Shown piece after piece: positions 10,243 through 53,177 of a DNA stretch of 64,000 nucleotides. The stretch lies in IMG/VR virus record IMGVR_UViG_3300020714_000006. One strand, 5' to 3'. The stretch is from a virus (taxonomy: Duplodnaviria; Heunggongvirae; Uroviricota; Caudoviricetes). Made by a program: the position numbers and the translations under genes. The notes below the pieces were generated by a model. That model was given only the letters and a program-made list of their open reading frames with translations. It was not told where the DNA came from and made no database searches. Within the stretch, counting starts at the first letter, position 1. Every line of letters begins with the position of its first letter.

Positions 10243-12063
10243 ATGAAAAAGAAGAAAAATAAAATAGCAAAACCAAAACAAATTGATGCTAATCAATTAA
10301 GAAACACTGCTGTAGCAATGCATCAACAAAACAAATTAATAGAAGCAGAAAAATTATACAAACAGCTATTAACTATATTACCAAATGATACTACTTGTTG
10401 GACTAATTTAGGAACACTAGAATACCAACGTGGCAACTTTAAAAATGCAATTCAATTCATTGATAAATCATTAAAGATAGATCCAAACCAACCATTTGCA
10501 CATAACAATCGTGGCAACATTCTTAAAGATCTTAATCTAGTCAATGAAGCATTAGAAAGTTATAGCAATGGTATAGCAATCAATGATAAACTTCCAGAAC
10601 TCTTATACAACCGTGCTATTACATTACATGAATTAGGCAGAGTTGATGAAGCATTGGAATCATACACCAAAACTATAGAAATTGATAATAATAATATCAA
10701 AGCATATATAAATCTTGGTAACATTCTTCATGAATTAAACAGATCACACGAAGCTATAGCAAACTATAATAAAGTAAAAGAACTACAACCAGATTTTGCA
10801 TTAGCTTATGCAAATTGTGGCATTGTTTACCAACATATCAATGATGACGAAAAAGCATTAGAGAACTATACCAAAGCTACCGCAATTGAACCTATGTCAT
10901 CAGTATATTCTAATCGTGGTAATATCTATCAAAATCAACATAAACTATTAGAAGCAATAGAAGAATATGAAAAAGCAATCAAAATAGATCCAACATTTCA
11001 TACTGCACACGGTAACAAAGCTAATGCCCTATTATCAGTAAGAAGACTAGAAGAAGCTGAGAAATCATATAATACAGCATTAACTATTGAACCAGACTTT
11101 GCTGATGCACTTTGGAATAAATCTATACTTCTATTATTATATGGACAATATGAAGAAGGTTTCAAATTGTTTGAAAATAGATGGCGTTCTGCACTTAAGA
11201 ACTATTATCGTAGATATGATAAACCATTGTGGAACGGACAATCATTACAAGATAAAACTATTTACATATACCCAGAACAAGGATTTGGTGACTTTATACA
11301 ATTTTGTAGATACCTACCAATGTTTGATAACATGAATTGTAAAGTAATAGTAGAAGTTCCAATACTGCTTCGAGATCTAGTGAAAACAATAAAATGCAAT
11401 GCAACATTTCTAGATTCTGAAACATTTGACAAAACTATACCATTTGATTATCATTGTCCTATAATGAGTCTACCAGGTGGATTTAAAACCACATTAGATA
11501 CTATACCAGCTGATATGCCATACTTATATCCAGTTGAATCTAAACAAAAGTACTGGGCAGATAAATTAGGACCAAAAACAAAAACAAGAGTGGGATTAGT
11601 ATGGTCTGGTGGATTTAGACCAGAACAACCAGAAACCTGGGCAGCTAACAGTAGAAGAAATATTAAATTAGCAAATCTAGAATGCTTTAAAGATATAGAT
11701 GTAGAATTCTATAGTATTCAAAAGGGCGCAACACCTGAAAAAGAATTAACAGATTTGGTTGCACAGAATTGGGATGGTCCAGTTATTACTAGTTATACCG
11801 ATGAATTAATAGACTTTGCTGATACCGCTGCTTTCATAAGCAACTTGGATTTAGTAATATCAGTTGACACATCTACTGCCCATGTAGCAGCTGCTATCGG
11901 TAAACCAGTATGGATATTTAATAGATTTGATGCTTGTTGGCGATGGTTACTTAACAGAACTGATAGTCCATGGTATCCAACTGTTACCTTGTTCAATCAA
12001 AAAGTTACCAATGAATGGGATGAAGTTATACAAGAAATACACGAGAAACTTAAAACATTATGA
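10243..12063 (+). CDS. TPR-repeat protein with a C-terminal glycosyltransferase family 9 (heptosyltransferase)-like domain.
   Basis: About eight TPR units (A..Y..A repeats) at the N-terminus. The C-terminal half has PEQGFGDFIQFCRY and VDTSTAHVAAAIGKPVWIF, which resemble GT9 motifs. The tracked ORF starts at GTG 10231; the ATG at 10243 (MKKKKNK) is more likely. Confidence 0.55.
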   Translation: MKKKKNKIAKPKQIDANQLRNTAVAMHQQNKLIEAEKLYKQLLTILPNDTTCWTNLGTLEYQRGNFKNAIQFIDKSLKIDPNQPFAHNNRGNILKDLNLVNEALESYSNGIAINDKLPELLYNRAITLHELGRVDEALESYTKTIEIDNNNIKAYINLGNILHELNRSHEAIANYNKVKELQPDFALAYANCGIVYQHINDDEKALENYTKATAIEPMSSVYSNRGNIYQNQHKLLEAIEEYEKAIKIDPTFHTAHGNKANALLSVRRLEEAEKSYNTALTIEPDFADALWNKSILLLLYGQYEEGFKLFENRWRSALKNYYRRYDKPLWNGQSLQDKTIYIYPEQGFGDFIQFCRYLPMFDNMNCKVIVEVPILLRDLVKTIKCNATFLDSETFDKTIPFDYHCPIMSLPGGFKTTLDTIPADMPYLYPVESKQKYWADKLGPKTKTRVGLVWSGGFRPEQPETWAANSRRNIKLANLECFKDIDVEFYSIQKGATPEKELTDLVAQNWDGPVITSYTDELIDFADTAAFISNLDLVISVDTSTAHVAAAIGKPVWIFNRFDACWRWLLNRTDSPWYPTVTLFNQKVTNEWDEVIQEIHEKLKTL

Positions 12064-12308
12064 CACAGAATACATTACCAGATTTATATAACATATCAGT
12101 TGAAGAACTTCCAGAAGACATTAAAGAAAAGTTATATGATATGCTATTTGATAATGAATATAACAATTATGAGGAATTCGATGATTTAATAAAAAAGGAA
12201 CTTGATGAATATTTGTATAGCTTTACGTCTGCTTTATATTTAGAAGGGTACCAATTAACATTTAAATCTGAAGCTCATTATACCTTTTTCCTACTCAAAT
12301 GGATGTAA
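12060..12308 (+). CDS. WFxLRW-family small protein (divergent member).
   Basis: C-terminus FKSEAHYTFFLLKWM, with an ATGA overlap to the upstream gene. Confidence 0.5.
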   Translation: MTQNTLPDLYNISVEELPEDIKEKLYDMLFDNEYNNYEEFDDLIKKELDEYLYSFTSALYLEGYQLTFKSEAHYTFFLLKWM

Positions 12309-12309
12309 T

Positions 12310-12546
12310 ATGTATAAAGTAATGATACCAGAAACAAACAAAATTGGTTACGAATGGACTAAGTTACATTTAATGAAGGCGTGGTGCAAAGAAACATATG
12401 GATATGCTAAGGTAGATAACAAATATATATGGCGTAGTAGAATGGAATATCATGTTGATTGGGGGAAGAATTCGGTTGATAAAATTGCGTGCTTCTATTT
12501 CCAAAAAGAAGAACACGCTACATGGTTTGTTTTACGATGGACTTGA
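12310..12546 (+). CDS. WFxLRW-family small protein.
   Basis: C-terminus FQKEEHATWFVLRWT. Confidence 0.6.
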   Translation: MYKVMIPETNKIGYEWTKLHLMKAWCKETYGYAKVDNKYIWRSRMEYHVDWGKNSVDKIACFYFQKEEHATWFVLRWT

Positions 12547-12752
12547 ATACTGCCGTAGTTGATTTAGAAAAATATGATAAGTTTAGATATAGAGATATCA
12601 ATTCATATAATGGATTTGCCAGATTAAATGCTACCTATATTTTTAAAAAGAAGTTCAAGATTACCGGTGAACGATTTGTAGCATTTAATGAATTAGAACT
12701 AACATTTGAAACTGAACAAGCCAAAACTTGGTTCTTATTAAACTTGCATTAA
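12489..12752 (+). CDS. WFxLRW-family small protein. The start is probably the ATG at 12542, overlapping the upstream stop.
   Basis: C-terminus FETEQAKTWFLLNLH. Confidence 0.5.
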   Translation: MLLFPKRRTRYMVCFTMDLNTAVVDLEKYDKFRYRDINSYNGFARLNATYIFKKKFKITGERFVAFNELELTFETEQAKTWFLLNLH

Positions 12753-13183
12753 TGTTTTGATACTTTATAAAAAGCAAGATTACCAGTCACATCATGATGC
12801 ATTTTCCAAGTTGGTAATAATATTTTGGCTAATCTGCTATATAACGATTGTCTATTTGAATCTTCGGCAGAAAAAATAACACTGTTGACTTCATGTGTAT
12901 TTAAAAAATCTTTCATTATAGATACAACAGTTGAGAATACAGATTTTTCACTACCAGTACCAGTTTTGCTATAAACCTTTTTACCTTTTACTATTTGATA
13001 AAATGCAATCTTCCACGATTCACCATAATTAAATGCATCAAAACCATATTTAAGTTTCTTTGAAAAGAATCTGCCAGGTTGAACTATTACAAATTCCGCT
13101 ACTGCTGATTTATTATCATTAACAATCCATTTATATGGAACAGTTGAATCAAATGATTCACTTAGTATTTCAATTATCTTCAT
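12749..13183 (-). CDS. Hypothetical protein on the opposite strand inside the plus-strand array.
   Basis: 144-aa ORF beginning MKIIEIL. Confidence 0.45.
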   Translation of the reverse strand: MKIIEILSESFDSTVPYKWIVNDNKSAVAEFVIVQPGRFFSKKLKYGFDAFNYGESWKIAFYQIVKGKKVYSKTGTGSEKSVFSTVVSIMKDFLNTHEVNSVIFSAEDSNRQSLYSRLAKILLPTWKMHHDVTGNLAFYKVSKH

Positions 13184-13213
13184 TAATATTTCTCCGATAG
13201 TGTATTTATTGGT

Positions 13214-13242
13214 CTTGACAAATATTAGTAATTAACATATAA
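13214..13242 (+). promoter_or_regulatory. Sigma70 consensus promoter.
   Basis: TTGACA(13214-19), a 17-nt spacer, then TATAAT(13237-42). Confidence 0.7.
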
Positions 13243-13250
13243 TAAAGAAT

Positions 13251-13457
13251 ATGAATACTATAACATTAAACCAAAAACAAACTAGAATTTTCTGGAGTGA
13301 CATTGTTTTTAACAAACAAGTAACTATACACTCTATTGACAAATACATTTATGACACATATAATATCACTAAACGTAGATGGACAACCCATAGAACGTTA
13401 GAACTAACTTTTGAAGATGAAAAATATATATCCCTCTTTCTTGTGAGGTGGTCATGA
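13251..13457 (+). CDS. WFxLRW-family small protein.
   Basis: C-terminus FEDEKYISLFLVRWS. Confidence 0.55.
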   Translation: MNTITLNQKQTRIFWSDIVFNKQVTIHSIDKYIYDTYNITKRRWTTHRTLELTFEDEKYISLFLVRWS

Positions 13458-13660
13458 ACGAAAAAGAAAATACATTTAATATATTAGCTAATAAACCATT
13501 ATTAATTACTAGTTCATTATGCTACGTTGGTATACATAGTTGGAGTAAATGGAACGACCCACACACACGAGCAGTTGCCGGATATCAAACTATATTTGAG
13601 ACAATTCAAGAAAAAACTTGTAGACATTGTAATTTAAGAAAATATAAGAAGTTTAAGTAG
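13448..13660 (+). CDS. Hypothetical small protein.
   Basis: ORF overlapping its upstream neighbour. Confidence 0.35.
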   Translation: MVMNEKENTFNILANKPLLITSSLCYVGIHSWSKWNDPHTRAVAGYQTIFETIQEKTCRHCNLRKYKKFK

Positions 13661-13730
13661 AGGGTTTAATGAAAATAGTTCAAATTCTAGAAGAAGATGA
13701 TATACTACACCAACTGATTATTGTAGACCA

Positions 13731-14111
13731 TTGATTTTAACTACATTTTCACCACAAAGTGATGTTTATTCATTTTATAATACCTATTCTGGTACACCAG
13801 AGAACAATGCAAAATGGATAAGAGTAGACCAAAAGTTTGGTGACTTCTGGTTTGGTAAGCCGGTAAAAGAATTAGTTATGGTGAACCCATATGAATTTAT
13901 TCGTGGTGAAATACCTAAAAGCCATTTCTATGGTAAAACACGTAAAGATATAGAAAACGAGTATGATGAATATTTAAGTTCTAATGCAATGCCATACGGA
14001 AAATACCAAGAATATACTTTTGCAGAAATAAAAGCGTATGATATATCTTATTTTTCATGGGCTACTGATAAAGAAATAATAAAGGTTATTGATTATGATA
14101 ATAAAGACTAA
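13731..14111 (+). CDS. Hypothetical protein.
   Basis: 126-aa ORF. Confidence 0.4.
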   Translation: MILTTFSPQSDVYSFYNTYSGTPENNAKWIRVDQKFGDFWFGKPVKELVMVNPYEFIRGEIPKSHFYGKTRKDIENEYDEYLSSNAMPYGKYQEYTFAEIKAYDISYFSWATDKEIIKVIDYDNKD

Positions 14112-14334
14112 GGTTATTAATGGTTCATACTTCCCTTTCTTAGCAGAAATGCGTGAGATCGAAGATAACGATTATATTGTTATCAGACAATGGTGTATAG
14201 ACCAATTTGGAATACCATCTAAAGCTGGCAGAGGGTTAGATACAACTGCAAGATGGTTGGAACCAATTTTTAGTAATGGTTTTAGATTTAAGAACGAAGC
14301 AGACCGTGTTTGGTTTGTAATGAGGTGGACATGA
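14089..14334 (+). CDS. WFxLRW-family small protein.
   Basis: C-terminus FKNEADRVWFVMRWT. The codons gaggtgg of RW plus ATGA serve the next gene. Confidence 0.6.
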   Translation: MIMIIKTKVINGSYFPFLAEMREIEDNDYIVIRQWCIDQFGIPSKAGRGLDTTARWLEPIFSNGFRFKNEADRVWFVMRWT

Positions 14335-14555
14335 AAATAGAGAAACTTGATAACAATCCTTACCCATATATTATTAGATTTAGAACCAACTGTGCTCTGA
14401 CACAATGGGAAGAAATGTATAATTGGTGCACAGAAACGTTTGGCACCGCATACGCAACAGAAGGTATCTGGATTAAACAATTGAATGGCATACGATTCAA
14501 ACATAAAGAACATGCTACCTGGTTTGTTTTACGATGGTCTGGTAATGACATATAA
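14310..14555 (+). CDS. WFxLRW-family small protein. The true start is probably the ATG at 14331.
   Basis: Contains WCTETFG and the C-terminus FKHKEHATWFVLRWSGNDI. Confidence 0.6.
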   Translation: MVCNEVDMKIEKLDNNPYPYIIRFRTNCALTQWEEMYNWCTETFGTAYATEGIWIKQLNGIRFKHKEHATWFVLRWSGNDI

Positions 14556-14751
14556 TATAATATTAAATTCAGAACAAACTAAAAAGTTTTGGAAAGAAGT
14601 CTGTGAGAAAGTAAATTGGGAAATGAGTGAGCTTGACCAGTACTTATATGACAAGTATACTATTGTAAAACGAACATGGCAATCTAATCGAACTTTACGT
14701 CTAACATTAGAAGATGAGAAATATATAACTTGGTTTAGCTTATACTTATGA
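14485..14751 (+). CDS. WFxLRW-family small protein (divergent).
   Basis: C-terminus LEDEKYITWFSLYL. Confidence 0.5.
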   Translation: MAYDSNIKNMLPGLFYDGLVMTYNIILNSEQTKKFWKEVCEKVNWEMSELDQYLYDKYTIVKRTWQSNRTLRLTLEDEKYITWFSLYL

Positions 14752-15020
14752 ATGATTGTGAATTATATTTAAATGAAGAAATGTGGGAAAGATTAAGAAC
14801 ATATCTTAATTACCTTGATCCTACTGATGAAATTATGTATTCTAACGGAAATCATAGACAACAATGGAAACGAGAAATTAAGAAACATTTTAAAGGAAAA
14901 TACTATGAACATACTAAGGCATCAAGTCGTAAATTTTGGGGTTATATAATGTTTGATAAACCAGAACATAAAACATGGTTTATTATCAAAATATCAGCAG
15001 AGGAAATGTATGATCATTGA
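14748..15020 (+). CDS. WFxLRW-family small protein (divergent).
   Basis: C-terminus FDKPEHKTWFIIKIS. Confidence 0.5.
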   Translation: MNDCELYLNEEMWERLRTYLNYLDPTDEIMYSNGNHRQQWKREIKKHFKGKYYEHTKASSRKFWGYIMFDKPEHKTWFIIKISAEEMYDH

Positions 15021-15249
15021 AAAACCAGGATATGTATTTACTTATAGTATTCAATTTGATTGGTTGTATCCTCATTTAGGGGAAATTTATGAATGGTGTG
15101 AAGATACTTTTGGTGAAGCATTTAATAACTCAGTTCATCAAGCAGTACATAATCCAGCAAAATGGACTAAACAAAGGGGTGGTGTAAGGTTTACAAAATT
15201 AGAACACGCTGAATGGTTTGTGTTACGGTGGAGTGGTATTGACATATAA
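14953..15249 (+). CDS. WFxLRW-family small protein.
   Basis: Contains YEWCEDTFGEAF and the C-terminus FTKLEHAEWFVLRWSGIDI. Confidence 0.6.
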   Translation: MINQNIKHGLLSKYQQRKCMIIEKPGYVFTYSIQFDWLYPHLGEIYEWCEDTFGEAFNNSVHQAVHNPAKWTKQRGGVRFTKLEHAEWFVLRWSGIDI

Positions 15250-18894: not shown

Positions 18895-19128
18895 ATGAAC
18901 GTAAAAATGATAAGAGAACTGGCATTTGATTGTTATACTGGTAAACATCATGAATTTGATGAGATACTATTTGCCGAGATGATTGTTAAAGAATTCATTA
19001 CAATTTGTAAATCAACAGTAAACGATGAGCAAGACTATGAAGATATGGATGAGTATGAAAAGGGTTGGGCTGATTCTGCTGATCGTATTATTGAGCTATC
19101 AATAAAACATTTTGGAGTCGAAGAATGA
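18895..19128 (+). CDS. Small protein of the FAEMIVKEC..HFGV paralog family.
   Basis: Shares FAEMIVKEF.ICK and a C-terminal KHFGVEE with the other family members. Confidence 0.5.
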   Translation: MNVKMIRELAFDCYTGKHHEFDEILFAEMIVKEFITICKSTVNDEQDYEDMDEYEKGWADSADRIIELSIKHFGVEE

Positions 19129-19391
19129 ACGAGAAAATTAGAGAACTTGCTGAACAGTCTGGTTTCTTTCCAGTTCCTGATGAAATGGAATGGGATTGGG
19201 ACTATAGAGCAGAAAATGCTCGTTATGAAAGGTTTGCCGAGATGATTGTAAAACAATGTATGAAAATTTGTGAGGATCAAGCTAGTCTACAATATGATGC
19301 ATATAGGTTTGATTTTGTAGAACATGATACAAGTGAAACTGCAAGTCAGTGTGCAACACAGATTAAAGAACACTTTGGAGTAAACGAATGA
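19125..19391 (+). CDS. FAEMIVKEC..HFGV-family protein.
   Basis: Contains RFAEMIVKQCMKIC and ends KEHFGVNE. Overlaps its neighbour by ATGA. Confidence 0.5.
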   Translation: MNEKIRELAEQSGFFPVPDEMEWDWDYRAENARYERFAEMIVKQCMKICEDQASLQYDAYRFDFVEHDTSETASQCATQIKEHFGVNE

Positions 19392-19618
19392 ATGAAAGAA
19401 TTAAAGAAATTGCATTAGAATCTTGGGCATATGTATCCTATAATGATGCTCCTAAAGGTATATTAAAAAGAGATTGGTATGACCAGAAATTTGCTGAGTT
19501 GATTGTAAATGAATGTGTAGCAGAAGCAAAAGATGATTGTGCTGGTTGGTCAGAACGCGACCAGTGTCTTGTGATGCAGGTCATGGACAGGATTAAACAA
19601 CATTTTGGAATAAGATAA
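19388..19618 (+). CDS. FAEMIVKEC..HFGV-family protein.
   Basis: Contains KFAELIVNECV and ends KQHFGIR. Confidence 0.5.
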   Translation: MNERIKEIALESWAYVSYNDAPKGILKRDWYDQKFAELIVNECVAEAKDDCAGWSERDQCLVMQVMDRIKQHFGIR

Positions 19619-22063: not shown

Positions 22064-22291
22064 ATGAACGAAAACATTGAAAACTTGAAGAAACAATGTT
22101 ATATTAGTATTGTTGACAGAGATGGCGATATGGAATATAATATGCAAAAATTTGCTGAGTTGATTGTAAAAGAATGTTATCAAATCTGTAAGGATAATCT
22201 TATAGCTGGTGATGACTATGGCGAATTAAATTATAATGATGGTGTTATGGATTGTGGTATTATGATTATGCATCATTTTGGAGTCAAATAA
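22064..22291 (+). CDS. FAEMIVKEC..HFGV-family protein.
   Basis: Contains KFAELIVKECYQICKDN and ends HHFGVK. Confidence 0.5.
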   Translation: MNENIENLKKQCYISIVDRDGDMEYNMQKFAELIVKECYQICKDNLIAGDDYGELNYNDGVMDCGIMIMHHFGVK

Positions 22292-28430: not shown

Positions 28431-28652
28431 ATGAAAGAGAAAATTAAGGAAATAGCTCAACAAGCTGGATTAGTAGCAGATAACAATATATTTAGATTAG
28501 AACACTTTGCTGAATTAATTGCAATGGATGTTATATCCATTATCACAAGTCAGCAAAGTGATACCGAATTCTTAGATGATTGGGATTATGGATATGATGC
28601 AGCCTTGGATAAAACTGAAAATGACTTAAGAAAATATTTTGGAGTTGATTAA
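28431..28652 (+). CDS. FAEMIVKEC..HFGV-family protein.
   Basis: Contains HFAELIAMDV and ends RKYFGVD. Confidence 0.45.
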   Translation: MKEKIKEIAQQAGLVADNNIFRLEHFAELIAMDVISIITSQQSDTEFLDDWDYGYDAALDKTENDLRKYFGVD

Positions 28653-32478: not shown

Positions 32479-33444
32479 TTATTTTGGATGATTGCGATTA
32501 TAAGTTTCTTTATATTTTAATCTTGACTGCAGTTTTTGTTCGGCGGTCCTACCACTTTTTGTTTGTTTTTCTTTCCGTTTTCGTTCATTCTCCTGTTCAG
32601 GAGTTCTAGCAGCATGAGAATTTTTTAGTTTTAGTGTTATTACTAATTTTTCTTCTGGTGTTTTAGCATCAAATGTAGCTTTGCGCTTTGCTATAATATC
32701 TAATTTTTCTTCTAACGGTTTTGCCTCGATGGTTGCTTTAAGTGTTGTTTTTTGTTTTTCTATTTGAGTTTGTTTTTCTTCAGGTGACCTAGCATTCTTT
32801 GTTTTCCATTCTTTTTGTTTAGTTTCCAATTTTTCTTCTGATGTTCTATTAATTTTAGCTAATCTTTGTTTTTCTTTCGTTGCTAATTTTTCCTCTGGAG
32901 ATTTTGCATCTTCTGTAGCTTTTTTCTTTGCATTGACCAATAATCTTTCTGCTGGGGTTCTTGAAGTTTTTGCTAGTCGTTGCTTTTCTTTAATTGTATA
33001 GTTTTCTTCTGCACTTCTAGCTGCTTCTGTAGCTTTTTTCTTTTCTGCAATTAATGTTTTTTCATACAAACATTTAGCCTTTCTAGTTATTGCAGTTTTT
33101 GCAATAGAATCTTCAGTAGCATGAAATTTATTACCACCGTTATTTTTATTAAGCCAATATGGACTTTTCGCTGCATTAATTCTTGTTAAGAACTTATGTT
33201 CCCAAGCGACTGTATCTTTTCTAGTTTTAAATATTTTTCGTATTTGAACAGAAAATAATTCCTTGCCATGTAGAGCAATTAGATTTTTTATTTCTTTTGA
33301 TGATGTAAAATATGTCACCCAAAACTCAGTTGGATTTGCCACATTTTTTCTACTATTTGCATACCTACATCCGTAATAACGTTGGCCGGTTATTAGAAAT
33401 GTTATGCAATATGTATACGGGACATAAATAAGTTTGTTGGTCAT
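32479..33444 (-). CDS. GIY-YIG homing endonuclease with about eight tandem DNA-binding repeat modules.
   Basis: N-terminal YVPYTYCITFLITGQRYYGCRYANS, followed by repeats of the form TPEEKLxxKEKQRLAKxxRT. Confidence 0.7.
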   Translation of the reverse strand: MTNKLIYVPYTYCITFLITGQRYYGCRYANSRKNVANPTEFWVTYFTSSKEIKNLIALHGKELFSVQIRKIFKTRKDTVAWEHKFLTRINAAKSPYWLNKNNGGNKFHATEDSIAKTAITRKAKCLYEKTLIAEKKKATEAARSAEENYTIKEKQRLAKTSRTPAERLLVNAKKKATEDAKSPEEKLATKEKQRLAKINRTSEEKLETKQKEWKTKNARSPEEKQTQIEKQKTTLKATIEAKPLEEKLDIIAKRKATFDAKTPEEKLVITLKLKNSHAARTPEQENERKRKEKQTKSGRTAEQKLQSRLKYKETYNRNHPK

Positions 33445-34329: not shown

Positions 34330-34358
34330 AGAAAGCCCGCATTTAGCGGGCTTTTTAT
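34330..34358. terminator. Bidirectional intrinsic terminator.
   Basis: agcccgc attta gcgggct, flanked by an A run and a T run, between convergent genes. Confidence 0.7.
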
Positions 34359-34369
34359 TGCTTAAAATA

Positions 34370-34663
34370 TTAATTCATCTCAATTGACAACAATGCCATT
34401 GAAAGTAAAGCTTCATTCTTAACACAGATCCAATAAATTCTTTTAGAGTAATGACCTTTACTCTCTACAGTTTCCCATTTACCGGCATATTTAATATGAC
34501 TAGCCATGCACCAAATATACCTAGTAGGACGTGGGTACCGTTCTTCTAAATAATTTTTAATGTTCATGTAATTAGAAATTCCTTCACCTGCACCAAATCT
34601 TACAGCGTGGGTAAATCCATGCTTAAATGCCCTATTTCTTCTATCTAACTTTACTATCTTCAT
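34370..34663 (-). CDS. Hypothetical protein, the last gene of the minus-strand array.
   Basis: ORF lacking the WFxLRW tail. Confidence 0.4.
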   Translation of the reverse strand: MKIVKLDRRNRAFKHGFTHAVRFGAGEGISNYMNIKNYLEERYPRPTRYIWCMASHIKYAGKWETVESKGHYSKRIYWICVKNEALLSMALLSIEMN

Positions 34664-34857
34664 TTACTCCACCTCATTAAGAACCAATTACGATCTTCTT
34701 CATTTTCAAACCAAAATACGCCAGATTTGTGTGTCCAACGTGTACCACGATTACCAAATGATGATTTCATCCACGCTGCTTGTTCTTTGACAATAGACGA
34801 CAAACAGCAATGTTTAATCCAATAATTATACTTCATCCCCATCTCAATAAAAACCAA
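34660..34857 (-). CDS. WFxLRW-family small protein.
   Basis: C-terminus FENEEDRNWFLMRWSK. Confidence 0.6.
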   Translation of the reverse strand: MVFIEMGMKYNYWIKHCCLSSIVKEQAAWMKSSFGNRGTRWTHKSGVFWFENEEDRNWFLMRWSK

Positions 34858-35111
34858 TTCATATCTTCTCTATTTTTAAAATGAAAATGAGTTCCTGCTA
34901 CGAGCACACGGTCTCTTCCAAAATTATGACACCAGTCATGAATTGGTGGCAAATAGGTTTCATGCCAACCAGAACCTGGTTGATATAAATCATACCAATT
35001 AATGCTATAGATATCACACAATGAAAAAATAAGCCCATATTCATACTCTCTATCTAAAAAAGAAAATCTGTGAAACGTATATTCTTTCATGACCACCTCA
35101 ATACAAACCAA
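34833..35111 (-). CDS. WFxLRW-family small protein.
   Basis: Contains HDWCHNFG and the C-terminus FKNREDMNWFLLRWG. Confidence 0.6.
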   Translation of the reverse strand: MVCIEVVMKEYTFHRFSFLDREYEYGLIFSLCDIYSINWYDLYQPGSGWHETYLPPIHDWCHNFGRDRVLVAGTHFHFKNREDMNWFLLRWG

Positions 35112-35314
35112 TTATAATGCGCTTCACTTTCAAATGTAAGATATGTTTTTTCTAATGTTGCGTGAAATGGTTCTAACTCTTTATTGATATTATCAATTCT
35201 AGCAATTCTATCAACATGTAATAATCCAACTAAACTCTTACTCTTAAGAACAGTCTCTTGGTAAAAGTTCAACCACCCTGGAACAGTTATATAATTCTTT
35301 CTAATCTTTTTCAT
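35087..35314 (-). CDS. WFxLRW-family small protein.
   Basis: C-terminus FESEAHYNWFVLRWS. Confidence 0.6.
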   Translation of the reverse strand: MKKIRKNYITVPGWLNFYQETVLKSKSLVGLLHVDRIARIDNINKELEPFHATLEKTYLTFESEAHYNWFVLRWS

Positions 35315-35540
35315 GTCCCCACCTTAAAATAAACCAAGTATAATCTGCATCACTTAATGAATATTGATATGTCCCAGGCACCCATTTTGCCGACTTGTAT
35401 CCAATACTATGTAAAAACATCTCGCCACCTTCTCTGGATGTATTTCCAATTCTACTAGAGAAGTGATTACTAAATAATTTTCGAAGTTCTGGATATGAAA
35501 CTATTCGTATTGTTTTCATGAAAACCTCAATATAAACCAA
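35301..35540 (-). CDS. WFxLRW-family small protein.
   Basis: C-terminus DADYTWFILRWGHEKD. Confidence 0.6.
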   Translation of the reverse strand: MVYIEVFMKTIRIVSYPELRKLFSNHFSSRIGNTSREGGEMFLHSIGYKSAKWVPGTYQYSLSDADYTWFILRWGHEKD

Positions 35541-35734
35541 TTACGGTCTGCTTCATTTTTAAATTTAAATACATTACCGTAATTGGTGCTAGTATAAATC
35601 CAACTACTGGATTTATTCAAGTTTTGTGGTTTACCCCATTGTTCTTCACACCATTTATACATTTCTTTACGTTTCTTAAAATCTTCATCCGTTAAGACAA
35701 TATGAAATGTATATAATTCTTCATCAATATACAT
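35516..35734 (-). CDS. WFxLRW-family small protein.
   Basis: Contains YKWCEEQWG and the C-terminus FKNEADRNWFILRFS. Confidence 0.6.
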   Translation of the reverse strand: MYIDEELYTFHIVLTDEDFKKRKEMYKWCEEQWGKPQNLNKSSSWIYTSTNYGNVFKFKNEADRNWFILRFS

Positions 35735-35739
35735 TATGA

Positions 35740-36030
35740 TTATTTCCTATAAATATTATTACCATTCATGAATTGGACCATAACAAATTCTTCTTCTGTA
35801 TATTGTTTGCCATTTAAAAACCATGCTTTATACCCATTTGGGTATTCAACAGCAGGGCCATCCAGTCTATGTCTTTTGCCATTTAACCACCATTCTTTAT
35901 GACCAGTTATACCTTCATATGCTGGACCATCTTCTCGGTGTAATCGGCCATTTAATCGCCATGATTTAGTACCGTCTGGATATTCATATTGTTTTGGTTG
36001 TGTTTTCATGACCACCTCAATAAAAACCAA
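35740..36030 (-). CDS. MORN-like repeat protein embedded in the array.
   Basis: LHREDGPAYE, HRLDGPAVEY and YTEEEF. The real start is the internal ATG that forms an ATGA with the upstream stop. Confidence 0.55.
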   Translation of the reverse strand: MVFIEVVMKTQPKQYEYPDGTKSWRLNGRLHREDGPAYEGITGHKEWWLNGKRHRLDGPAVEYPNGYKAWFLNGKQYTEEEFVMVQFMNGNNIYRK

Positions 36031-36254
36031 TTTGCATATGCTTCGTTTCTAAATTTAACTTGAATTGTGCCAATAGTTGTTAGATAGAATGCCCATTCCT
36101 GGTCTTTAAGATAATAAGAATATCCACCGTTCTCTAAACCACCAAAACTTTCAACCAGCCAGTTGTATACCTGATTGGCATTTGATGGAACTTTTATTTC
36201 AATACAATAAAGTTTTTGACCAAGTAAGTCTGTGCTGCATCTAATATTGTTCAT
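36006..36254 (-). CDS. WFxLRW-family small protein.
   Basis: C-terminus FRNEAYANWFLLRWS*. Its last codons (ttgaggtgg tca TGA) provide a GAGGTGG Shine-Dalgarno and an ATGA start for the next gene. Confidence 0.65.
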   Translation of the reverse strand: MNNIRCSTDLLGQKLYCIEIKVPSNANQVYNWLVESFGGLENGGYSYYLKDQEWAFYLTTIGTIQVKFRNEAYANWFLLRWS

Positions 36255-36480
36255 TTGACCACCTTAACATAAACCAATTACGATCTTCCTCCGTTAAAAA
36301 TCTAATGCTAGGATAATCAAATTCTGTATTTACTACATGCCATTTTATTCCATGTTCACCAAATGTATCAGTACACCAATCAATATATTCACTTAATAAG
36401 AAACGTTCGTTATTTTCTAAATCTATAAGATATATAAAAACTTCATTAAATGCTTTCACGACCACCTCAATACAAACCAA
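36241..36480 (-). CDS. WFxLRW-family small protein.
   Basis: Contains IDWCTDTFGEHG and the C-terminus EEDRNWFMLRWSNEQY. Confidence 0.6.
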   Translation of the reverse strand: MVCIEVVVKAFNEVFIYLIDLENNERFLLSEYIDWCTDTFGEHGIKWHVVNTEFDYPSIRFLTEEDRNWFMLRWSNEQY

Positions 36481-36791
36481 TTACGATCTTCTTCACGTAA
36501 GAAACAAAACAAATCACAATCATAGGATTCACGATAATCATGAACCCATCGTTCATATTGTTCACCAAAAGTTTCTTCACACCATTCCCATAATGCTTCT
36601 GCCCAATCTACATTTTCTTGCAATGTAGATTCTATTTTCAATCTATCATCATAGTATAAATTAACCTGCCAGACAAATTCTTCTTTATAAAGTTCCATTT
36701 TAACTCCACTTAAAAATAAACCAGGTCTTGTGTTCTGGTTTTTTAAATGTAATTTTAAATCCATCATACAAATTACCACCAATAGTTGCAT
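36456..36791 (-). CDS. WFxLRW-family small protein.
   Basis: Contains WEWCEETFGEQYE and the C-terminus REEDRNWFVLRWS. Confidence 0.6.
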   Translation of the reverse strand: MQLLVVICMMDLKLHLKNQNTRPGLFLSGVKMELYKEEFVWQVNLYYDDRLKIESTLQENVDWAEALWEWCEETFGEQYERWVHDYRESYDCDLFCFLREEDRNWFVLRWS

Positions 36792-36927
36792 TAAATTCTG
36801 AATTTAACATAGTATCTAACTCTACACTATTGACAATTTTATAATGTTTAACATAATGTTTAATAAAATTTATCCAATATAACGGACACCTGTGTAGTTC
36901 GCCTGGTAATTGAATTACATTATCCAT
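36700..36927 (-). CDS. WFxLRW-family small protein.
   Basis: C-terminus FKKPEHKTWFIFKWS. Confidence 0.55.
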   Translation of the reverse strand: MDNVIQLPGELHRCPLYWINFIKHYVKHYKIVNSVELDTMLNSEFNATIGGNLYDGFKITFKKPEHKTWFIFKWS

Positions 36928-37274
36928 TATGCTACCGTATATTCAATATCATCTGGTAATTCAAAATGAAAATTAAACTTTGGAAAACGTTCATGTGCAA
37001 CCTCTAATGCTTCGTCTACTGATTCACCTTGTGATACAAATGTCCCACATTCTTTAAACCACATCATAATTTGATTACCATGTTTCTCAACTTCTAATTC
37101 TACATACTCATATCCCTCATCACTTTCAACAGTATATGATCTAGTAGCGTTGTCAAATAACTCTATAACTGATTTTGGATCTCGTGCATAAGCACGCATT
37201 ATTATTTTATTCCATAAAAATCCACCAATAAACATGCCAAACAAAAATGCACCAATTACTAATAAAATCATCAT
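36927..37274 (-). CDS. Protein with an N-terminal transmembrane helix. It is a paralog of the frameshifted 20831-20994.
   Basis: MMILLVIGAFLFGMFIGGFLWNKIIMRAY. Confidence 0.45.
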   Translation of the reverse strand: MMILLVIGAFLFGMFIGGFLWNKIIMRAYARDPKSVIELFDNATRSYTVESDEGYEYVELEVEKHGNQIMMWFKECGTFVSQGESVDEALEVAHERFPKFNFHFELPDDIEYTVA

Positions 37275-37275
37275 A

Positions 37276-37725
37276 TTATTTTCCTCTTGTTAGTTTACTT
37301 AATAATAAAAAATTGTCATAACTTTGTTGTAAAGCTGGGTTCTCTAATATTTCTTCAGCTTCTTTAATCATTTCTGAAACACCAGCTCTCACAGCTTCCA
37401 TTATAGTAGAAGTTTTCAATCTACACAAGTCTTCCCCATAGACTTCTCTCATACGGTCCCATGCTTCTTTTTGTTCTTGTGTATATGGTGGTATTTCTGG
37501 AGTATAAGTCAACTTATCTACAATAATAGCAGCAATGCGGTCTTCTGCATAACTTCCAGCAGCAATCATTGGTGCAAATGCTGGTTCAATGTTATATCGT
37601 CTAGATCTAGACCCTGGTTTGCATACTGTTAGATGAGTGCCTTCTGGCCAAGAATCGTTAAATTCATTGTCATATTCACGTGCAGGAATATATTTTCTGC
37701 CTTTTTTGATAAAATAAGTAGTCAT
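37276..37725 (-). CDS. Hypothetical protein.
   Basis: 149-aa ORF with no family motif. Confidence 0.4.
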   Translation of the reverse strand: MTTYFIKKGRKYIPAREYDNEFNDSWPEGTHLTVCKPGSRSRRYNIEPAFAPMIAAGSYAEDRIAAIIVDKLTYTPEIPPYTQEQKEAWDRMREVYGEDLCRLKTSTIMEAVRAGVSEMIKEAEEILENPALQQSYDNFLLLSKLTRGK

Positions 37726-37778
37726 TGATGGTTCCTGTAATCGTTAAAGTTCTATTATAACAATTACAGGAATAGATG

Positions 37779-38042
37779 TCAAGTAGAAAACTTGATTGTG
37801 TAGAATGTGTAATCTGATGGTTTAATATAAGCTGTTATATAATATTCGTATCCAAGGGTATATGGATGGTAATGTTTAACTACCTCTATATGTATACAAT
37901 GATTACTAACCCATTGTCCTTCTTCAGAATTTAGCCAAATATCTAATATTTCATTCTGTGTCGGTGATGTCATATATATTACCACTCTATGAAATATTTT
38001 TCTTTCATACACGGAGTCGTTAAATATCTTAAAATTATCCAT
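37779..38042 (-). CDS. WFxLRW-family small protein (divergent).
   Basis: C-terminus YTFYTIKFST. Confidence 0.45.
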   Translation of the reverse strand: MDNFKIFNDSVYERKIFHRVVIYMTSPTQNEILDIWLNSEEGQWVSNHCIHIEVVKHYHPYTLGYEYYITAYIKPSDYTFYTIKFST

Positions 38043-38045
38043 GTA

Positions 38046-38231
38046 TTATCCCCACTTTAACAAATACCAAGTAAAATCTGATTCATTTCTAAAGTAGATA
38101 TAGTTTTGAAACTGAAACCATCGGTTGGTATCAACTTTAAATTGTTCAGTACACCAGGTAACTTGGTCCCATCGTGTACTATTACAACTAGATAGCAGTA
38201 CACCATAATAATCGTGTAATTCTTCAGACAT
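38046..38231 (-). CDS. WFxLRW-family small protein.
   Basis: Contains VTWCTEQF and the C-terminus FRNESDFTWYLLKWG. Confidence 0.55.
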   Translation of the reverse strand: MSEELHDYYGVLLSSCNSTRWDQVTWCTEQFKVDTNRWFQFQNYIYFRNESDFTWYLLKWG

Positions 38232-38505
38232 TTTTATAATTGGTACTAGTTTCTTCTTTGTCCCACTTTAAAACAGCCCATGTATATTTTGCTTTTGCTT
38301 CTTCTTCATTGTCATATTTCCAACCAAACTTATTGATTCTATTTTGACTATTCAATATAGAATCATATTCTGTCATCTTATCTGCCGCTGTCCAAAACCG
38401 GTGTCTTAAATTTAAATCTATTTGATAATATTTTTGTTTTCTTACAGAATGTTCAGATAGCGAAAATTTATCAGATTTGTTTAATAATTTATGGCTATTT
38501 CTCAT
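38224..38505 (-). CDS. WFxLRW-family small protein (divergent).
   Basis: C-terminus EEAKAKYTWAVLKWDKEETSTNYKNV. Confidence 0.45.
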   Translation of the reverse strand: MRNSHKLLNKSDKFSLSEHSVRKQKYYQIDLNLRHRFWTAADKMTEYDSILNSQNRINKFGWKYDNEEEAKAKYTWAVLKWDKEETSTNYKNV

Positions 38506-38512
38506 TATTCTC

Positions 38513-38743
38513 TTATTTTTCTTCTTTTTTAGGAACTCTTTCAGACCATCTTAATAAAAAGAAATCACGATGGCCTTCATTTTTAAATGACCATAACCTA
38601 TCAGTCATAAAAATTCCACAATTAGAGCTTTCACTCCAATCAATCATTTCATCGCGTAAATCATCATTCATTTCATCACGGTCAAATGATAGACCTGGTA
38701 GTTTGAACATTCCCACGGATACGTGCTTCATATAACTCTCCAC
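38513..38743 (-). CDS. WFxLRW-family small protein.
   Basis: C-terminus FKNEGHRDFFLLRWSERVPKKEEK. Confidence 0.55.
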   Translation of the reverse strand: MESYMKHVSVGMFKLPGLSFDRDEMNDDLRDEMIDWSESSNCGIFMTDRLWSFKNEGHRDFFLLRWSERVPKKEEK

Positions 38744-38785
38744 ATAAAATTAAAAATAATATTGTATAATAAAACTGGTTAAATG

Positions 38786-39121
38786 TCAACTCAAAAATTC
38801 ACTATACTTTAATAAGAAAAAAGTTCTCTTTGGCTCACTATAAAAATCTAAGTGTATCATATTGGAATAATACCCTCTAGATGGTTGAATCATATAAGTT
38901 TCATCTACAATTTTATTAGCATATTGTTTCATGAATTCATCGTACATTGGATTTTCTATCCATGTACGATGCGACCTTGATGTAAATCCCAAAACTTTCT
39001 TAGTTTTTTCTCTTATGGCTAGAACACTTTTTGGATAATCTTTATACATTTCTATTAATAAATTATGCCATTGCATCTCTGATATTATTACTGGTTTCAT
39101 TGCCACCTCATTAAGAACCAT
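38786..39121 (-). CDS. WFxLRW-family small protein (divergent).
   Basis: C-terminus YSEPKRTFFLLKYSEFLS. Confidence 0.45.
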   Translation of the reverse strand: MVLNEVAMKPVIISEMQWHNLLIEMYKDYPKSVLAIREKTKKVLGFTSRSHRTWIENPMYDEFMKQYANKIVDETYMIQPSRGYYSNMIHLDFYSEPKRTFFLLKYSEFLS

Positions 39122-39309
39122 TGATAATGCGCTGTACTTTCAAATGTGAGAACACGATCTTGATATATTGCATTAAATTTTTGTAATTCAGCATTACGAA
39201 TTTCCAACCACAGTTCTTCATCATTCCCAGACATGCTATCACAATGATCACGAAGATTCAATATTACGGTGTCTGGCATATAACTGATACTTATTTTTAC
39301 TTCATCCAT
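39097..39309 (-). CDS. WFxLRW-family small protein.
   Basis: C-terminus FESTAHYQWFLMRWQ. Confidence 0.55.
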   Translation of the reverse strand: MDEVKISISYMPDTVILNLRDHCDSMSGNDEELWLEIRNAELQKFNAIYQDRVLTFESTAHYQWFLMRWQ

Positions 39310-39560
39310 TTTAATCTAAACCATGTCATTTGGGCACGTTTTAATTTCCTAGCATCAAATTCTACATACCATTCTGTCTCACGACCGTAATCATTCCAGT
39401 GATACCGTTTAATCATTGCCCAACCTTTGCCAGTTATATAGTCGGTAGACCAAAATTTGTGGTCATCTATTGGTCCAAAATGTTTTATTAACCATTCTTG
39501 AAGTTCTGTGTATTCAGGACTATCATATTCTATTAAATCTTTAACTTGTTTTCTAAGCAC
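39297..39560 (-). CDS. WFxLRW-family small protein.
   Basis: C-terminus RKLKRAQMTWFRLKWMK. Confidence 0.5.
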   Translation of the reverse strand: MLRKQVKDLIEYDSPEYTELQEWLIKHFGPIDDHKFWSTDYITGKGWAMIKRYHWNDYGRETEWYVEFDARKLKRAQMTWFRLKWMK

Positions 39561-39897
39561 TGTGTTTTATCAAATAAAATGTTAAATATTCATTATCCAA
39601 AATAGCCATATCAGTTGGATATCTATTGTGTTCGCCTTTGTACCATGTATTGGTATTCGCATTTAAGATTTGTATCTTAACCATCTTTGGATTGAGTTTT
39701 ATAACTTTTGCTACTTCTAATCTATTATAGACACTAACAGCTACAAAATCACCAACTTTGATCTTACGACCGATTATATCAAAATGAACTAGTTCCTTTT
39801 TAGGGGTTCTCTTCTTCTCTGTCATATACTTCCCATGTATTATTTTCATAGTCCCAATGTCTTGTATCATAAACTGTATATTCCAGAGTATAACCAA
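39553..39897 (-). CDS. Hypothetical protein, a possible distant family member.
   Basis: C-terminus YLTFYLIKHSA. Confidence 0.35.
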   Translation of the reverse strand: MVILWNIQFMIQDIGTMKIIHGKYMTEKKRTPKKELVHFDIIGRKIKVGDFVAVSVYNRLEVAKVIKLNPKMVKIQILNANTNTWYKGEHNRYPTDMAILDNEYLTFYLIKHSA

Positions 39898-40090
39898 ACA
39901 ACCCTAATTTAGTATTCAACCCTGCGTGGTCACAGTTAATACTTAAACAAAACTCGATATTAATAATTTGATCTGTGCGATATAGATTAAGTTCCCATGC
40001 TTTATGGGTTGTAAGTAACCCATTTGTCCCCCAAATCAAATTCCAAGTATTAGACCAAGGATTTGAAATTAAAAAATTAAAAGTTATCAT
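39800..40090 (-). CDS. Hypothetical protein.
   Basis: ORF. Confidence 0.35.
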   Translation of the reverse strand: MITFNFLISNPWSNTWNLIWGTNGLLTTHKAWELNLYRTDQIINIEFCLSINCDHAGLNTKLGLFGYTLEYTVYDTRHWDYENNTWEVYDREEENP

Positions 40091-40447
40091 TTATATCACC
40101 AAACAAAATGCAAGATAGCCAATATAACACAAATGATGAAAAAGCTGGTCAAGACCGATATGACACCAAAATTGTTTATCATTCATATCACGATTACCAT
40201 AATTCATTTTAATCCAATCGATATGGTAATGTAAAATTATATCAATTATACCAATAAATAATGCTTGGTTGAATGGAACTATGAATAAGAAAATAGCATA
40301 AGTTAAAAGACCATGTTTAACACTATGCCCTACACCAATCATATTACCATATATGCCTTTTGTCTGAACTTCATCTTGCGATTGATTCATGAAATCCACA
40401 TGGTAATGTTTTAATTGTAAAAATACAAGGACTAATAATATGTCCAT
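40091..40447 (-). CDS. Membrane protein with about four transmembrane helices.
   Basis: Hydrophobic helices with HYH motifs (HYHVDF, HYHIDW). Confidence 0.45.
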   Translation of the reverse strand: MDILLVLVFLQLKHYHVDFMNQSQDEVQTKGIYGNMIGVGHSVKHGLLTYAIFLFIVPFNQALFIGIIDIILHYHIDWIKMNYGNRDMNDKQFWCHIGLDQLFHHLCYIGYLAFCLVI

Positions 40448-40483
40448 AAAAATCTCCGAATTTAAATTATTAGTATACTACAG

Positions 40484-40819
40484 TTATTTGTTATTGTCAA
40501 GGTTTTCTTCAGCTTGACATATTTGTTTAACCATATTGTAATTGTTCTTGGCATTTAATAATGCTGGATACTTTTCAAGTATATCCTTTTCATTCATCTC
40601 TTCTATCATCTTTTGTTTAGCCCATTCTAATATTTGTACTGCTTCAAATGATAAATCTACCGCAGCATCTCCTTGTAATTCGTACCACGCGGTACCAGAA
40701 TTATATTCTACTCTACCATTTTTATACCTCATTTGACCACATTCTGCTAATGGGTCTAAATTGGATGAGTTAAAATTATAAGATGTTAGATATCGCCCTG
40801 TTGTTATTTTATTGATCAT
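40484..40819 (-). CDS. Hypothetical protein.
   Basis: ORF. Confidence 0.4.
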   Translation of the reverse strand: MINKITTGRYLTSYNFNSSNLDPLAECGQMRYKNGRVEYNSGTAWYELQGDAAVDLSFEAVQILEWAKQKMIEEMNEKDILEKYPALLNAKNNYNMVKQICQAEENLDNNK

Positions 40820-40988
40820 AGTTCTTTCACGTTAAATTTTAATAGTAAAAATGTTAAATCTGAATCATTTGTCAGTCTAAGATCCACTAAATTTTTTAAA
40901 TCCCACCGAGTGCCATAGCCACCCCAATTATTATTGATATACCAAATTACTTCCATTGGGTCTTCAAATTTCCAAATTGGTATTGATA

Positions 40989-41234
40989 TCATATTCCAAA
41001 CTTAATCCTAAATAACATATACTTTTGTTCATTTACAATTATGTAGTTTGCAGTAATATACCCATCTATTGTTATAGATATTCCATATGTTTTTTCAATA
41101 TATTCAGACAAATCTGCAAATTTCTTATGACATTCTGTAGATGCAATAGTTCTAATTATTTGATAAAACTTATCACGTTTTATACGTTCTTCGGCTAATT
41201 TTGGATCCATTATTTCCACCTTAATATAAACCAA
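40989..41234 (-). CDS. Hypothetical protein, a possible distant family member.
   Basis: C-terminus KYMLFRIKFGI. Confidence 0.35.
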   Translation of the reverse strand: MVYIKVEIMDPKLAEERIKRDKFYQIIRTIASTECHKKFADLSEYIEKTYGISITIDGYITANYIIVNEQKYMLFRIKFGI

Positions 41235-41443
41235 GTGTACACATCTTCTCTAAGATCATAGCAATTTTCTTCCTGCCAATAATCCTTAAATCTACGGTTT
41301 GCAGTATACCGCCATCCATCTGATTGGTTAATAATCCAATCGTTTATCTCTGGTCTATTAGATCTAATCGTATACCATTTTTCATTTAAATCTTGGACAA
41401 CCCGAACATTTTCATATGGTTTTGTAAATGCAGATGGAACCAA
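41210..41443 (-). CDS. WFxLRW-family small protein.
   Basis: C-terminus DLREDVYTWFILRWK. Confidence 0.55.
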   Translation of the reverse strand: MVPSAFTKPYENVRVVQDLNEKWYTIRSNRPEINDWIINQSDGWRYTANRRFKDYWQEENCYDLREDVYTWFILRWK

Positions 41444-41479
41444 AATATGATTAAAAAAAGATTTCAGAACACAAATTTT

Positions 41480-41701
41480 TCATTCTGAACACCATCTTAA
41501 TGCAAACATTGTTGAATCAATATCACGATATAACGTTAAAACACCACCTTGCATATTAAATTTCATTTTACGTTCTCGAAGCCATTCTGCTACATTATTC
41601 CATTCTACTGTTGTTAGACCTTTTTCGTTATTACTTAATAAAAAGCTATTATTTTCAAATGGCATTTTACGTATTCTCATCCCCACCTCAATGCAAACCA
41701 A
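41480..41701 (-). CDS. WFxLRW-family small protein.
   Basis: C-terminus RDIDSTMFALRWCSE. Confidence 0.5.
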   Translation of the reverse strand: MVCIEVGMRIRKMPFENNSFLLSNNEKGLTTVEWNNVAEWLRERKMKFNMQGGVLTLYRDIDSTMFALRWCSE

Positions 41702-41958
41702 TTACGGTCTGCTTCATCCTTTATTAAAATTCTTTCAGATCCAAGCCAACACCATTTAGGATTTACTTCACCCATACATGCTATTTCCTCATATTCATAG
41801 TATTCACAACTTGGTCCAAACTGTTCCCAACACCATTGGCGGATATCACGTACTCTAGCCATATTTTCTGATTTATTATAATGATACATTAACGCCATAT
41901 AGGTAAAATATGAATTACCATTGTGTCTACCATCCATCTTTTGTATTTTTATTTTCAT
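41677..41958 (-). CDS. WFxLRW-family small protein, the first gene of the minus-strand array.
   Basis: Contains IRQWCWEQFGP and the C-terminus IKDEADRNWFALRWG. Confidence 0.6.
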   Translation of the reverse strand: MKIKIQKMDGRHNGNSYFTYMALMYHYNKSENMARVRDIRQWCWEQFGPSCEYYEYEEIACMGEVNPKWCWLGSERILIKDEADRNWFALRWG

Positions 41959-41985: not shown

Positions 41986-42014
41986 ATTATATTACAAATG
42001 ATGTTGAATGTCAA
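41986..42014 (-). promoter_or_regulatory. Sigma70 consensus promoter on the minus strand, driving the minus-strand array.
   Basis: The reverse complement reads TTGACA(42014-42009), a 17-nt spacer, then TATAAT(41991-41986). Confidence 0.65.
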
Positions 42015-53088: not shown

Positions 53089-53177
53089 AATATTCTCCTT
53101 GTGTTCTTTAATTAAATAGTAAAAATGATATTATAGTATATTTTGTTATGGTTGTCAAGTCTCTATAAATAATTTAA

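Follow-up and report, generated by a model that had tools for sequence, protein, structure and literature searches.

On the minus strand of the window, by which is meant the whole 64,000-nt stretch of viral DNA analysed here (IMG/VR record IMGVR_UViG_3300020714_000006), a gene encoding an 82-aa protein (36254..36006) closes with the codons AAT TGG TTT TTA TTG AGG TGG TCA TGA (36030-36006), read as N W F L L R W S stop. The TGA stop is overlapped by an ATG (36009-36007) that opens a gene for an 89-aa MORN-like repeat protein (36009..35740). C-termini of the form W-F-x-(L/M)-R-W-(S/G/T/A) are shared by a family of small proteins encoded in two arrays, one on each strand (Table 1). The family was curated to about 30 members, which lie within 41958-34660 in the minus array and within 12060-15249 in the plus array. 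The window carries, in short, tandem arrays of small early-type genes of one divergent paralog family. The proteins are 58-111 aa long and are only 11-37% identical to the first sequence of the alignment, and alignment of the curated members gives the consensus W(C)..(T)FG.....W.....F.F..E.D..WF.LRW(S).

The window has a G+C content of 33%, encodes tail-fibre-like proteins, an exonuclease and further phage proteins, and contains no tRNA genes. Proteins identical to those of the window were found on metagenomic contigs of up to 334 kb, and the source is therefore a large, AT-rich, uncultured phage. A megablast search of the array against 50,697 phage records gave no match, so that no cultured relative exists within that collection. 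Two genes outside the arrays may be mentioned. A 426-aa protein with a Cas12f1-like TNB domain (TnpB-like) is encoded at 53178-54458 (plus strand), with a perfect promoter on the opposite strand at 53130-53158. A 321-aa protein at 32479-33444 (minus strand) has a homing-endonuclease-like N-terminal region (PHROG 314 and 447), and its long C-terminal half is rich in Lys and Glu and contains the repeated unit (A/T)(K/R)(S/T)PEEKL.

Scans of ten family members gave nothing above threshold in Pfam-A and nothing at E<=0.01 in PHROGs, and a tblastn search with a typical member found nothing at E<=1 among the 50,697 phage records. A full HMMER scan of 1.84 billion cluster representatives returned 1106 family clusters at E<=0.001, nearly all of them small proteins with a match reaching the C-terminus, as against only 4 proteins recovered by a word-indexed protein search with the family profile. 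Among the best 148 clusters, 57% stop one residue past (R/K)(W/F/Y), and this last residue, mostly Ser, has an NNA codon in 81 of 84 such clusters, which fits NNA-TGA overlaps. None of the cluster members looked up carried a name, and a full-text literature search for the family motif strings found no paper. The family is widespread and large, unnamed and unstudied. Four distant homologs from outside the window (P0018, P0040, P0041 and P0008) have a 26-38-aa N-terminal segment fused to the family domain. This segment matches positions 4-43 of Pfam Gp23 (major capsid protein), with scores above the gathering cut-off of 24.4 bits for P0018 (42.5 bits) and P0040 (28.2 bits) and below it for P0041 (21.4 bits) and P0008 (19.1 bits).

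Perfect TTGACA-N17-TATAAT promoters occur 16 times in the window, against 0.08 expected. One of them had been placed by the first-pass annotation at 41986-42014, and a perfect copy was found exactly there, 27 nt upstream of the first ATG of the minus array (41958) and followed by a leader lacking a Shine-Dalgarno sequence. Further promoters are located inside the minus array (Table 1), and the plus array has promoters at 13215 and 15239. In the latter, the gene 15010-15249 supplies the -35 hexamer with its tail codons I-D-I; the ...TCTTGACAT... ending recurs in IMG/VR loci L005 and L006. Both arrays had been described as translationally coupled polycistrons. The sequence of the LRW junctions fits coupling, but only about half of the array junctions use the LRW Shine-Dalgarno, and the internal promoters of the minus array, together with the opposite-strand gene that interrupts the plus array, indicate several operons rather than one polycistron per array.

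Table 1. Arrays, promoters, terminator and family junctions in the window
Feature	Position	Strand	Remarks
Minus-strand array	34370..41958	-	about 29 small genes, 21 of the F.xE.D..WF.LRW(S/G)-stop family; from ORF lists, curated starts, alignment and HMM scan
Plus-strand array	12060..15249	+	9 family members; interrupted by minus-strand gene 12749-13183
Promoter, perfect TTGACA-N17-TATAAT	41986..42014	-	precedes first gene of minus array (ATG 41958)
Internal promoter, perfect	37754..37782	-	-35 hexamer contains TGA stop of family gene 38042..37779
Internal promoter, 11/12, TTGACA-17-TACAAT	38761..38789	-	-35 hexamer contains stop of gene 39100..38786
Internal promoter, 11/12, TTGACA-17-TATACT	40472..40500	-	precedes DUF3307 gene; strain breakpoint at 40503
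Intrinsic-terminator-like hairpin	34332..34354	-	AAAGCCCGC...GCGGGCTTT then T run; after last gene of minus array
Junction TTG AGG TGG TCA TGA	36006..36020	-	next ATG 36009-36007 (ATGA); homology with L001 stops at 36008
Junction TTG AGG TGG GGA TGA	41677..41691	-	next ATG 41680
Junction TTA AGG TGG AAA TAA TG	41208..41224	-	ATG 41210, 1-nt stop overlap, 8 nt past Arg codon
Junction ATG AGG TGG CAA TGA	39097..39111	-	next ATG 39100
Junction TTG AGG TGG TCG TGA	36456..36470	-	next start GTG 36459 (GTGA overlap); identical in L001
Junction TTA AGG TGG TCA AAT G	36252..36267	-	ATG 36254, 7 nt past Arg codon; genes overlap by 14 nt
Junction TTG AGG TTT TCA TGA	35516..35530	-	Trp replaced by Phe, AGG retained; next ATG 35519
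Junction TTA AGG TGG GGA CAT G	35312..35327	-	ATG 35314, 7 nt past Arg codon; 14-nt overlap
Junction TTG AGG TGG TCA TGA	35087..35101	-	ATG 35090; left edge of gene replaced in L001
Junction TTG AGA TGG GGA TGA	34833..34847	-	only coupled AGA junction of the window
Junction ATG AGG TGG AGT AAA TGA	34660..34677	-	ATG 34663
Junction GTG AGG TGG TCA TGA	13443..13457	+	ATG 13454
Junction ATG AGG TGG ACA TGA	14320..14334	+	ATG 14331

Codon choice at the junctions and the start of the next gene

The first-pass annotation proposed that the conserved tail codons of the family double as the ribosome-binding site and overlapping start of the next gene. The sequence arrangement was confirmed at 36006-36020 and at further junctions, and the four junctions quoted as examples are all present, except that the one at 34833 has AGA, not AGG, for Arg. 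Six copies of GAGGTGGNNATGA are present in the window, every one of them terminating a family gene, whereas shuffled sequences predict 0.01. A start 5-8 nt past the Arg codon is found in 13 of the window's 18 Arg-type family members, and at coupled junctions GAGGTGG or AAGGTGG lies inside the upstream gene, 5-8 nt before the start. These 13 coupled junctions use AGG (12) or AGA (one), and the next start is ATG (12) or GTG (one). Stop and start overlap by 4 nt in eight of them (seven ATGA and one GTGA); the other forms are a 4-nt overlap after a two-residue tail (two), a 1-nt TAATG overlap (one) and a 14-nt overlap (two). In the five members without a nearby start, Arg is encoded by CGA (two), AGA (two) or CGG (one).

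Additional sequences came from four close strains (L001-L004, 92-97% identical) and from ten IMG/VR loci with divergent family arrays, the loci having been located with a tighter 12-sequence family alignment. An HMM of the window members found 254 family ORFs in these strain and IMG/VR sequences, with up to 47 of them in a single 11.6-kb locus. Codons were counted at 162 de-duplicated junctions from the window and the ten IMG/VR loci. Where a start lies 4-9 nt past the Arg codon, this codon is AGG in 71 of 80 junctions, as against 4 of 27 where there is no such start, or 4 of 31 if the count also takes in junctions having an ATG only within the motif. Fisher tests of coupled versus uncoupled junctions give p values of 2e-12 to 4e-14, which ignore kinship and overstate the count of independent events because paralogs and loci share phylogeny. 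In the window alone, AGG occurs in 12 of 13 coupled junctions and in none of 4-5 uncoupled ones (p about 0.001-0.002). The synonymous sites of the LRW codons are thus unusually fixed, so that the codon check proposed in the first reading of the sequence gives a positive result.

Background codon usage is different. In the long genes of the window AGG accounts for 6.7% of Arg codons and AGA for 48%, while TTG accounts for 14% of Leu codons; among the remaining Arg codons of the family ORFs, AGG makes up 6-11%. A conserved Arg five codons upstream (DRNWF), used as a control, is AGG in 1 of 41 cases. In the profile of the 52 junctions with 5-nt spacing, the third base is G in 51 (98%) for the Arg codon and in 48 (92%) for the Leu, Met or Val codon before it. 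The third base of Phe, 7 nt upstream, follows normal usage (TTT 87%), and the remaining third positions are ordinary, so that the fixed synonymous positions in this profile are exactly the two that make GAGG. AGG is also retained in about 10 of 11 junctions of this spacing in which Trp is replaced by Phe or Tyr. Lys-type members (LKW) showed no clear dependence of AAG versus AAA on coupling. The coupled junctions that lack AGG all have AGA (9/9), and AGA followed by TGG makes an extra in-frame ATG, as it does at 34842 in the junction 34833..34847 of the minus strand. These nine junctions retain ATGA, and a strong Shine-Dalgarno is therefore not obligatory.

Uncoupled members, in which a long tail or a promoter comes next, retain L-R-W spelled with CGA, CGG, CGT, CGC or AGA. 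The ribosome-binding role therefore explains the spelling of the motif and not the motif, and L-R-W is under an amino-acid constraint of its own. The earlier suggestion that LRW is conserved partly as a regulatory signal applies to the choice of codons; it does not extend to the amino-acid motif, which is kept without coupling.

Two further arrangements were noticed at gene ends. Where the motif is spelled AGA, AAA or CGA TGG (34842, 39309, 12537 and many IMG/VR junctions), A-TG-G forms an ATG inside the motif. The next ORF often begins at this ATG, which lacks a preceding Shine-Dalgarno sequence, and the tail codons may thereby supply a start by a second route. A second paralog family on the plus strand (18895-19128, 19125-19391, 19388-19618, 22064-22291 and 28431-28652) has proteins ending in (H/Y)FG(V/I)xx before the stop. 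Four of its five members have the tail codons TTT GGA GT(N), the fifth having GGA ATA, and this spelling puts GGAG 7 nt upstream of an ATG that shares bases with the stop (ATGA or TAATG). The C-terminal codons of this unrelated family therefore serve the same double purpose.

The LRW junctions are best explained by ordinary translational coupling with an intragenic Shine-Dalgarno sequence, the tail codons of one gene being spelled for the start of the next, a reading to which we assign a probability of about 0.85. Where a gene lies directly downstream, the last codons are spelled (T/A/G)TG AGG TGG NNA TGA. The resulting GAGGTGG(TC) could pair over up to 9 bases with a canonical 3' end of 16S rRNA, and it sits 5-8 nt upstream of an ATG that shares bases with the stop codon (ATGA or TAATG). 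Initiation of the next gene at that ATG would then fall either to the ribosome that has just completed the upstream gene or to a newly recruited 30S subunit. This ribosome-binding role would fix two synonymous positions, with Arg as the rare AGG and the preceding Leu, Met or Val codon ending in G. The overlapping ATG is probably the start in use, and independent gene calls on related contigs begin at such ATGs; translation of the downstream gene would likewise depend on that of the upstream gene.

The consensus UUGAGGUGGUCAUGA is predicted to form a 9-bp duplex of -15.8 kcal/mol with an E. coli-type 16S 3' end, which is an assumed tail because phage and host are uncultured; the host presumably has a canonical anti-Shine-Dalgarno. 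Synonymous recoding to TTA AGA, preferred in this genome, gives a predicted duplex of -6.1 kcal/mol, and the ordinary ribosome-binding sites of the genome are predicted at -5.4 to -9.5 kcal/mol. Other window genes have AAGGA or GGAG at an equal aligned spacing, and 11 overlaps of 4 nt and nine of 1 nt occur outside the arrays, which argues that the arrangement is normal translational coupling. In published tests, gene pairs with ATGA were usually coupled, and removal of the intragenic Shine-Dalgarno reduced reinitiation in four of five E. coli pairs (PMC6728339); the behaviour of such coupled genes is known from measurements in both E. coli and Haloferax (Huber et al., 2019; PMC6728339). At the junctions of the window, too, co-directional genes have a stop/start overlap and a Shine-Dalgarno at functional distance. 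The coupling mechanism is already known. What appears to be new is a conserved protein motif that supplies the ribosome-binding signal across a whole family.

Strain breakpoints and competing explanations

It was also newly observed that whole-gene differences between close strains break inside the LRW junction. Homology between the window and L001 ends within the junction 36006-36020, where L001 has an extra 61-aa family member with TTATTGAGGTGGTCAT on both flanks. After this junction there is one MORN gene in the window and four in tandem in L001 (L001 8048-9343). Neither L001 nor L003 has the window gene 35519..35301. Each crossed over at a different point inside the junction, leaving the hybrid junctions ...TTGAGGTGGGGACATGAAAAAG in L001 and ...TTGAGGTTTTCATGAAAAAG in L003. 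In L001 an unrelated member takes the place of 35090..34833; the exchanged stretch begins with the ATGA at 35087 and ends at the following C-terminal motif, at about 34887. In two other lineages homology stops at the ATGA of a family junction, at 7822 for L008/L010 and at 6138 for L007/L008.

Two side observations concern the same strains and genes. The MORN-like repeat genes (YxDGxKxWxLNGxxHRxDGPA), present at 35740-36009 (minus strand) and 17263-17855 (plus strand), vary in copy number. L001-L003 contain a gene for a 255-aa NUMOD3 homing endonuclease, absent from the window, on the opposite strand and adjoining the DUF3307 membrane-protein gene (window 40094-40503; L001 2654-3421); the left breakpoint, 40503, is at the 11/12 promoter at 40500.

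The junction may be a recombination joint as well, a role that would add to ribosome binding and not replace it, and the case for this is about evenly balanced. Motif, Shine-Dalgarno and ATG together span about 15-25 nt and form the sole DNA-level stretch common to the divergent paralogs, and a crossover between two junctions would delete, insert or swap whole genes with frames and translation signals intact. The insertion in L001, the loss of 35519..35301, the replacement of 35090..34833 and the ends in L008/L010 and L007/L008 are all at junctions, and a precedent exists in the PeSL-mediated shuffling of T4-type phages (PMC2839356, PMC4122927). These are, however, a handful of events; selection would retain indels that end at gene boundaries under any mechanism, and the wobble positions outside the Shine-Dalgarno lack the extra conservation that would indicate selection for homology. 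The breakpoint role may be only a consequence of junction conservation, rather than a selected function. More speculatively, the junction could be regarded as a portable, self-contained linker and the arrays as a cassette-diversification system, a translational counterpart of PeSL kept partly by selection for plasticity.

Movement of blocks bears on the codon evidence too. If the joint conservation of AGG and ATG were due only to copying of the block, through gene conversion or tandem duplication, selection for ribosome binding would not be needed. Since the junctions are recombination breakpoints, blocks do move, and AGG and a nearby ATG co-occur almost by block. This explanation is nevertheless improbable, as the paralogs are just 11-37% identical, the wobble positions beside the two fixed G's vary at normal frequencies, and AGG survives in front of TTT or TAT and in members whose final codon is TCA, GGA, ACA, GCA or CAA. 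The AT-biased usage (AGA 48%, AGG 7%) should moreover erode an unselected AGG, and apparent orthologs from different lineages retain AGG although the codons next to it change, as in the DLREDVY..RW members, where TTA, TTG, ATG or CTG precedes it. Even so, the junction block (Shine-Dalgarno plus ATG) could in part have been passed on or disseminated as one piece through duplication and recombination.

Several ORFs downstream of family genes can be extended to begin with MV(C/F/Y)IEV(V/F)MK, which the first-pass annotation took for the upstream motif read in the downstream frame. This was correct, and gene calls on related contigs use the ATG. The MVxIEV reading opens at a TTG to which the codon preceding Trp contributes its last base and TGG its TG. 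It is very unlikely that this TTG, or the occasional ATG, opening MVxIEVVMK is the true start and that the downstream proteins carry a 7-residue extension. The ORFs do open from the upstream TTG, and at 39121 the upstream codon is ATG, but the upstream codons lack a Shine-Dalgarno, and a very strong one lies 5-8 nt ahead of the internal ATG. The extension is the conserved upstream motif in another frame and is missing from genes of this kind that come after a non-family gene, and the stored gene calls take the ATG.

A strong internal Shine-Dalgarno-like sequence beside a TGA stop recalls prfB, and RF2-type programmed frameshifting at such an element by the stop would fuse adjacent paralogs; this was rejected on sequence grounds as scarcely credible, because the step from the upstream to the downstream frame is -1 and no X XXY YYZ slippery heptamer is present, the spacing from Shine-Dalgarno to stop is unlike that of prfB, the 7-14-nt overlaps and the TAATG form do not fit, and the sole candidate for a fused array, the 1052-aa P0006 with 13 matched stretches, is an unrelated repetitive low-complexity protein.

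Significance and relation to known systems

Under translational coupling with an intragenic Shine-Dalgarno, the preferred reading, the junctions would provide a clean natural example of coding sequence that carries a second, regulatory layer. The rare AGG, which makes up about 7% of Arg codons, is kept at about 90% where a downstream start depends on it, and elsewhere it drifts to common codons. The pattern helps to predict gene starts in phage metagenomes, where simple extension of ORFs produces false MVxIEV N-termini, and it calls for care when the codons of tightly packed phage operons are optimised. That the same short sequence is linked to gains and losses of genes among strains suggests a way in which large phages renew their arrays of small accessory genes. 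A large unnamed family combined with cassette-like turnover at the junction is worth pursuing.

At the level of the protein, the candidate likeness is to DCoH/pterin-4a-carbinolamine dehydratase and concerns only the fold of the family protein (beta-beta-alpha-beta-beta-alpha). At the level of the junction, the closest likeness is to the termination-reinitiation pairs of Huber et al. (2019; PMC6728339), in which co-directional genes also have a stop/start overlap of 4 or 1 nt and a Shine-Dalgarno in the 3' end of the upstream gene, 5-8 nt before the start. Unlike in those pairs, the signal here comes from one protein motif, in dozens of paralogs per genome and more than 1000 public clusters; the predicted duplex, of 9 bp and -15.8 kcal/mol, is exceptionally long, and the coupling is a prediction from sequence.

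The 16 perfect promoters of the window resemble the early-gene layout of T4-type phages, in which modular shuffling mediated by PeSL is known (PMC2839356, published in 2010; Comeau et al., 2014, PMC4122927). As in the PeSL systems, arrays of small orphan early genes stand under consensus sigma-70-like promoters, gene boundaries repeatedly carry a short conserved regulatory sequence, and the repeated element bounds insertions, deletions and replacements between close relatives. No promoter was found within the LRW junction, the perfect promoters being elsewhere in the arrays, and no stem-loop terminator was found at the junctions, the terminator scan giving one convincing hairpin, at the array end (34354-34332). 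Mini-circles are a feature of PeSL. The two elements also differ in kind: PeSL, at about 100 bp, is an intergenic cassette that combines promoter and terminator, whereas the element repeated here is about 15-25 nt long, intragenic and translational.
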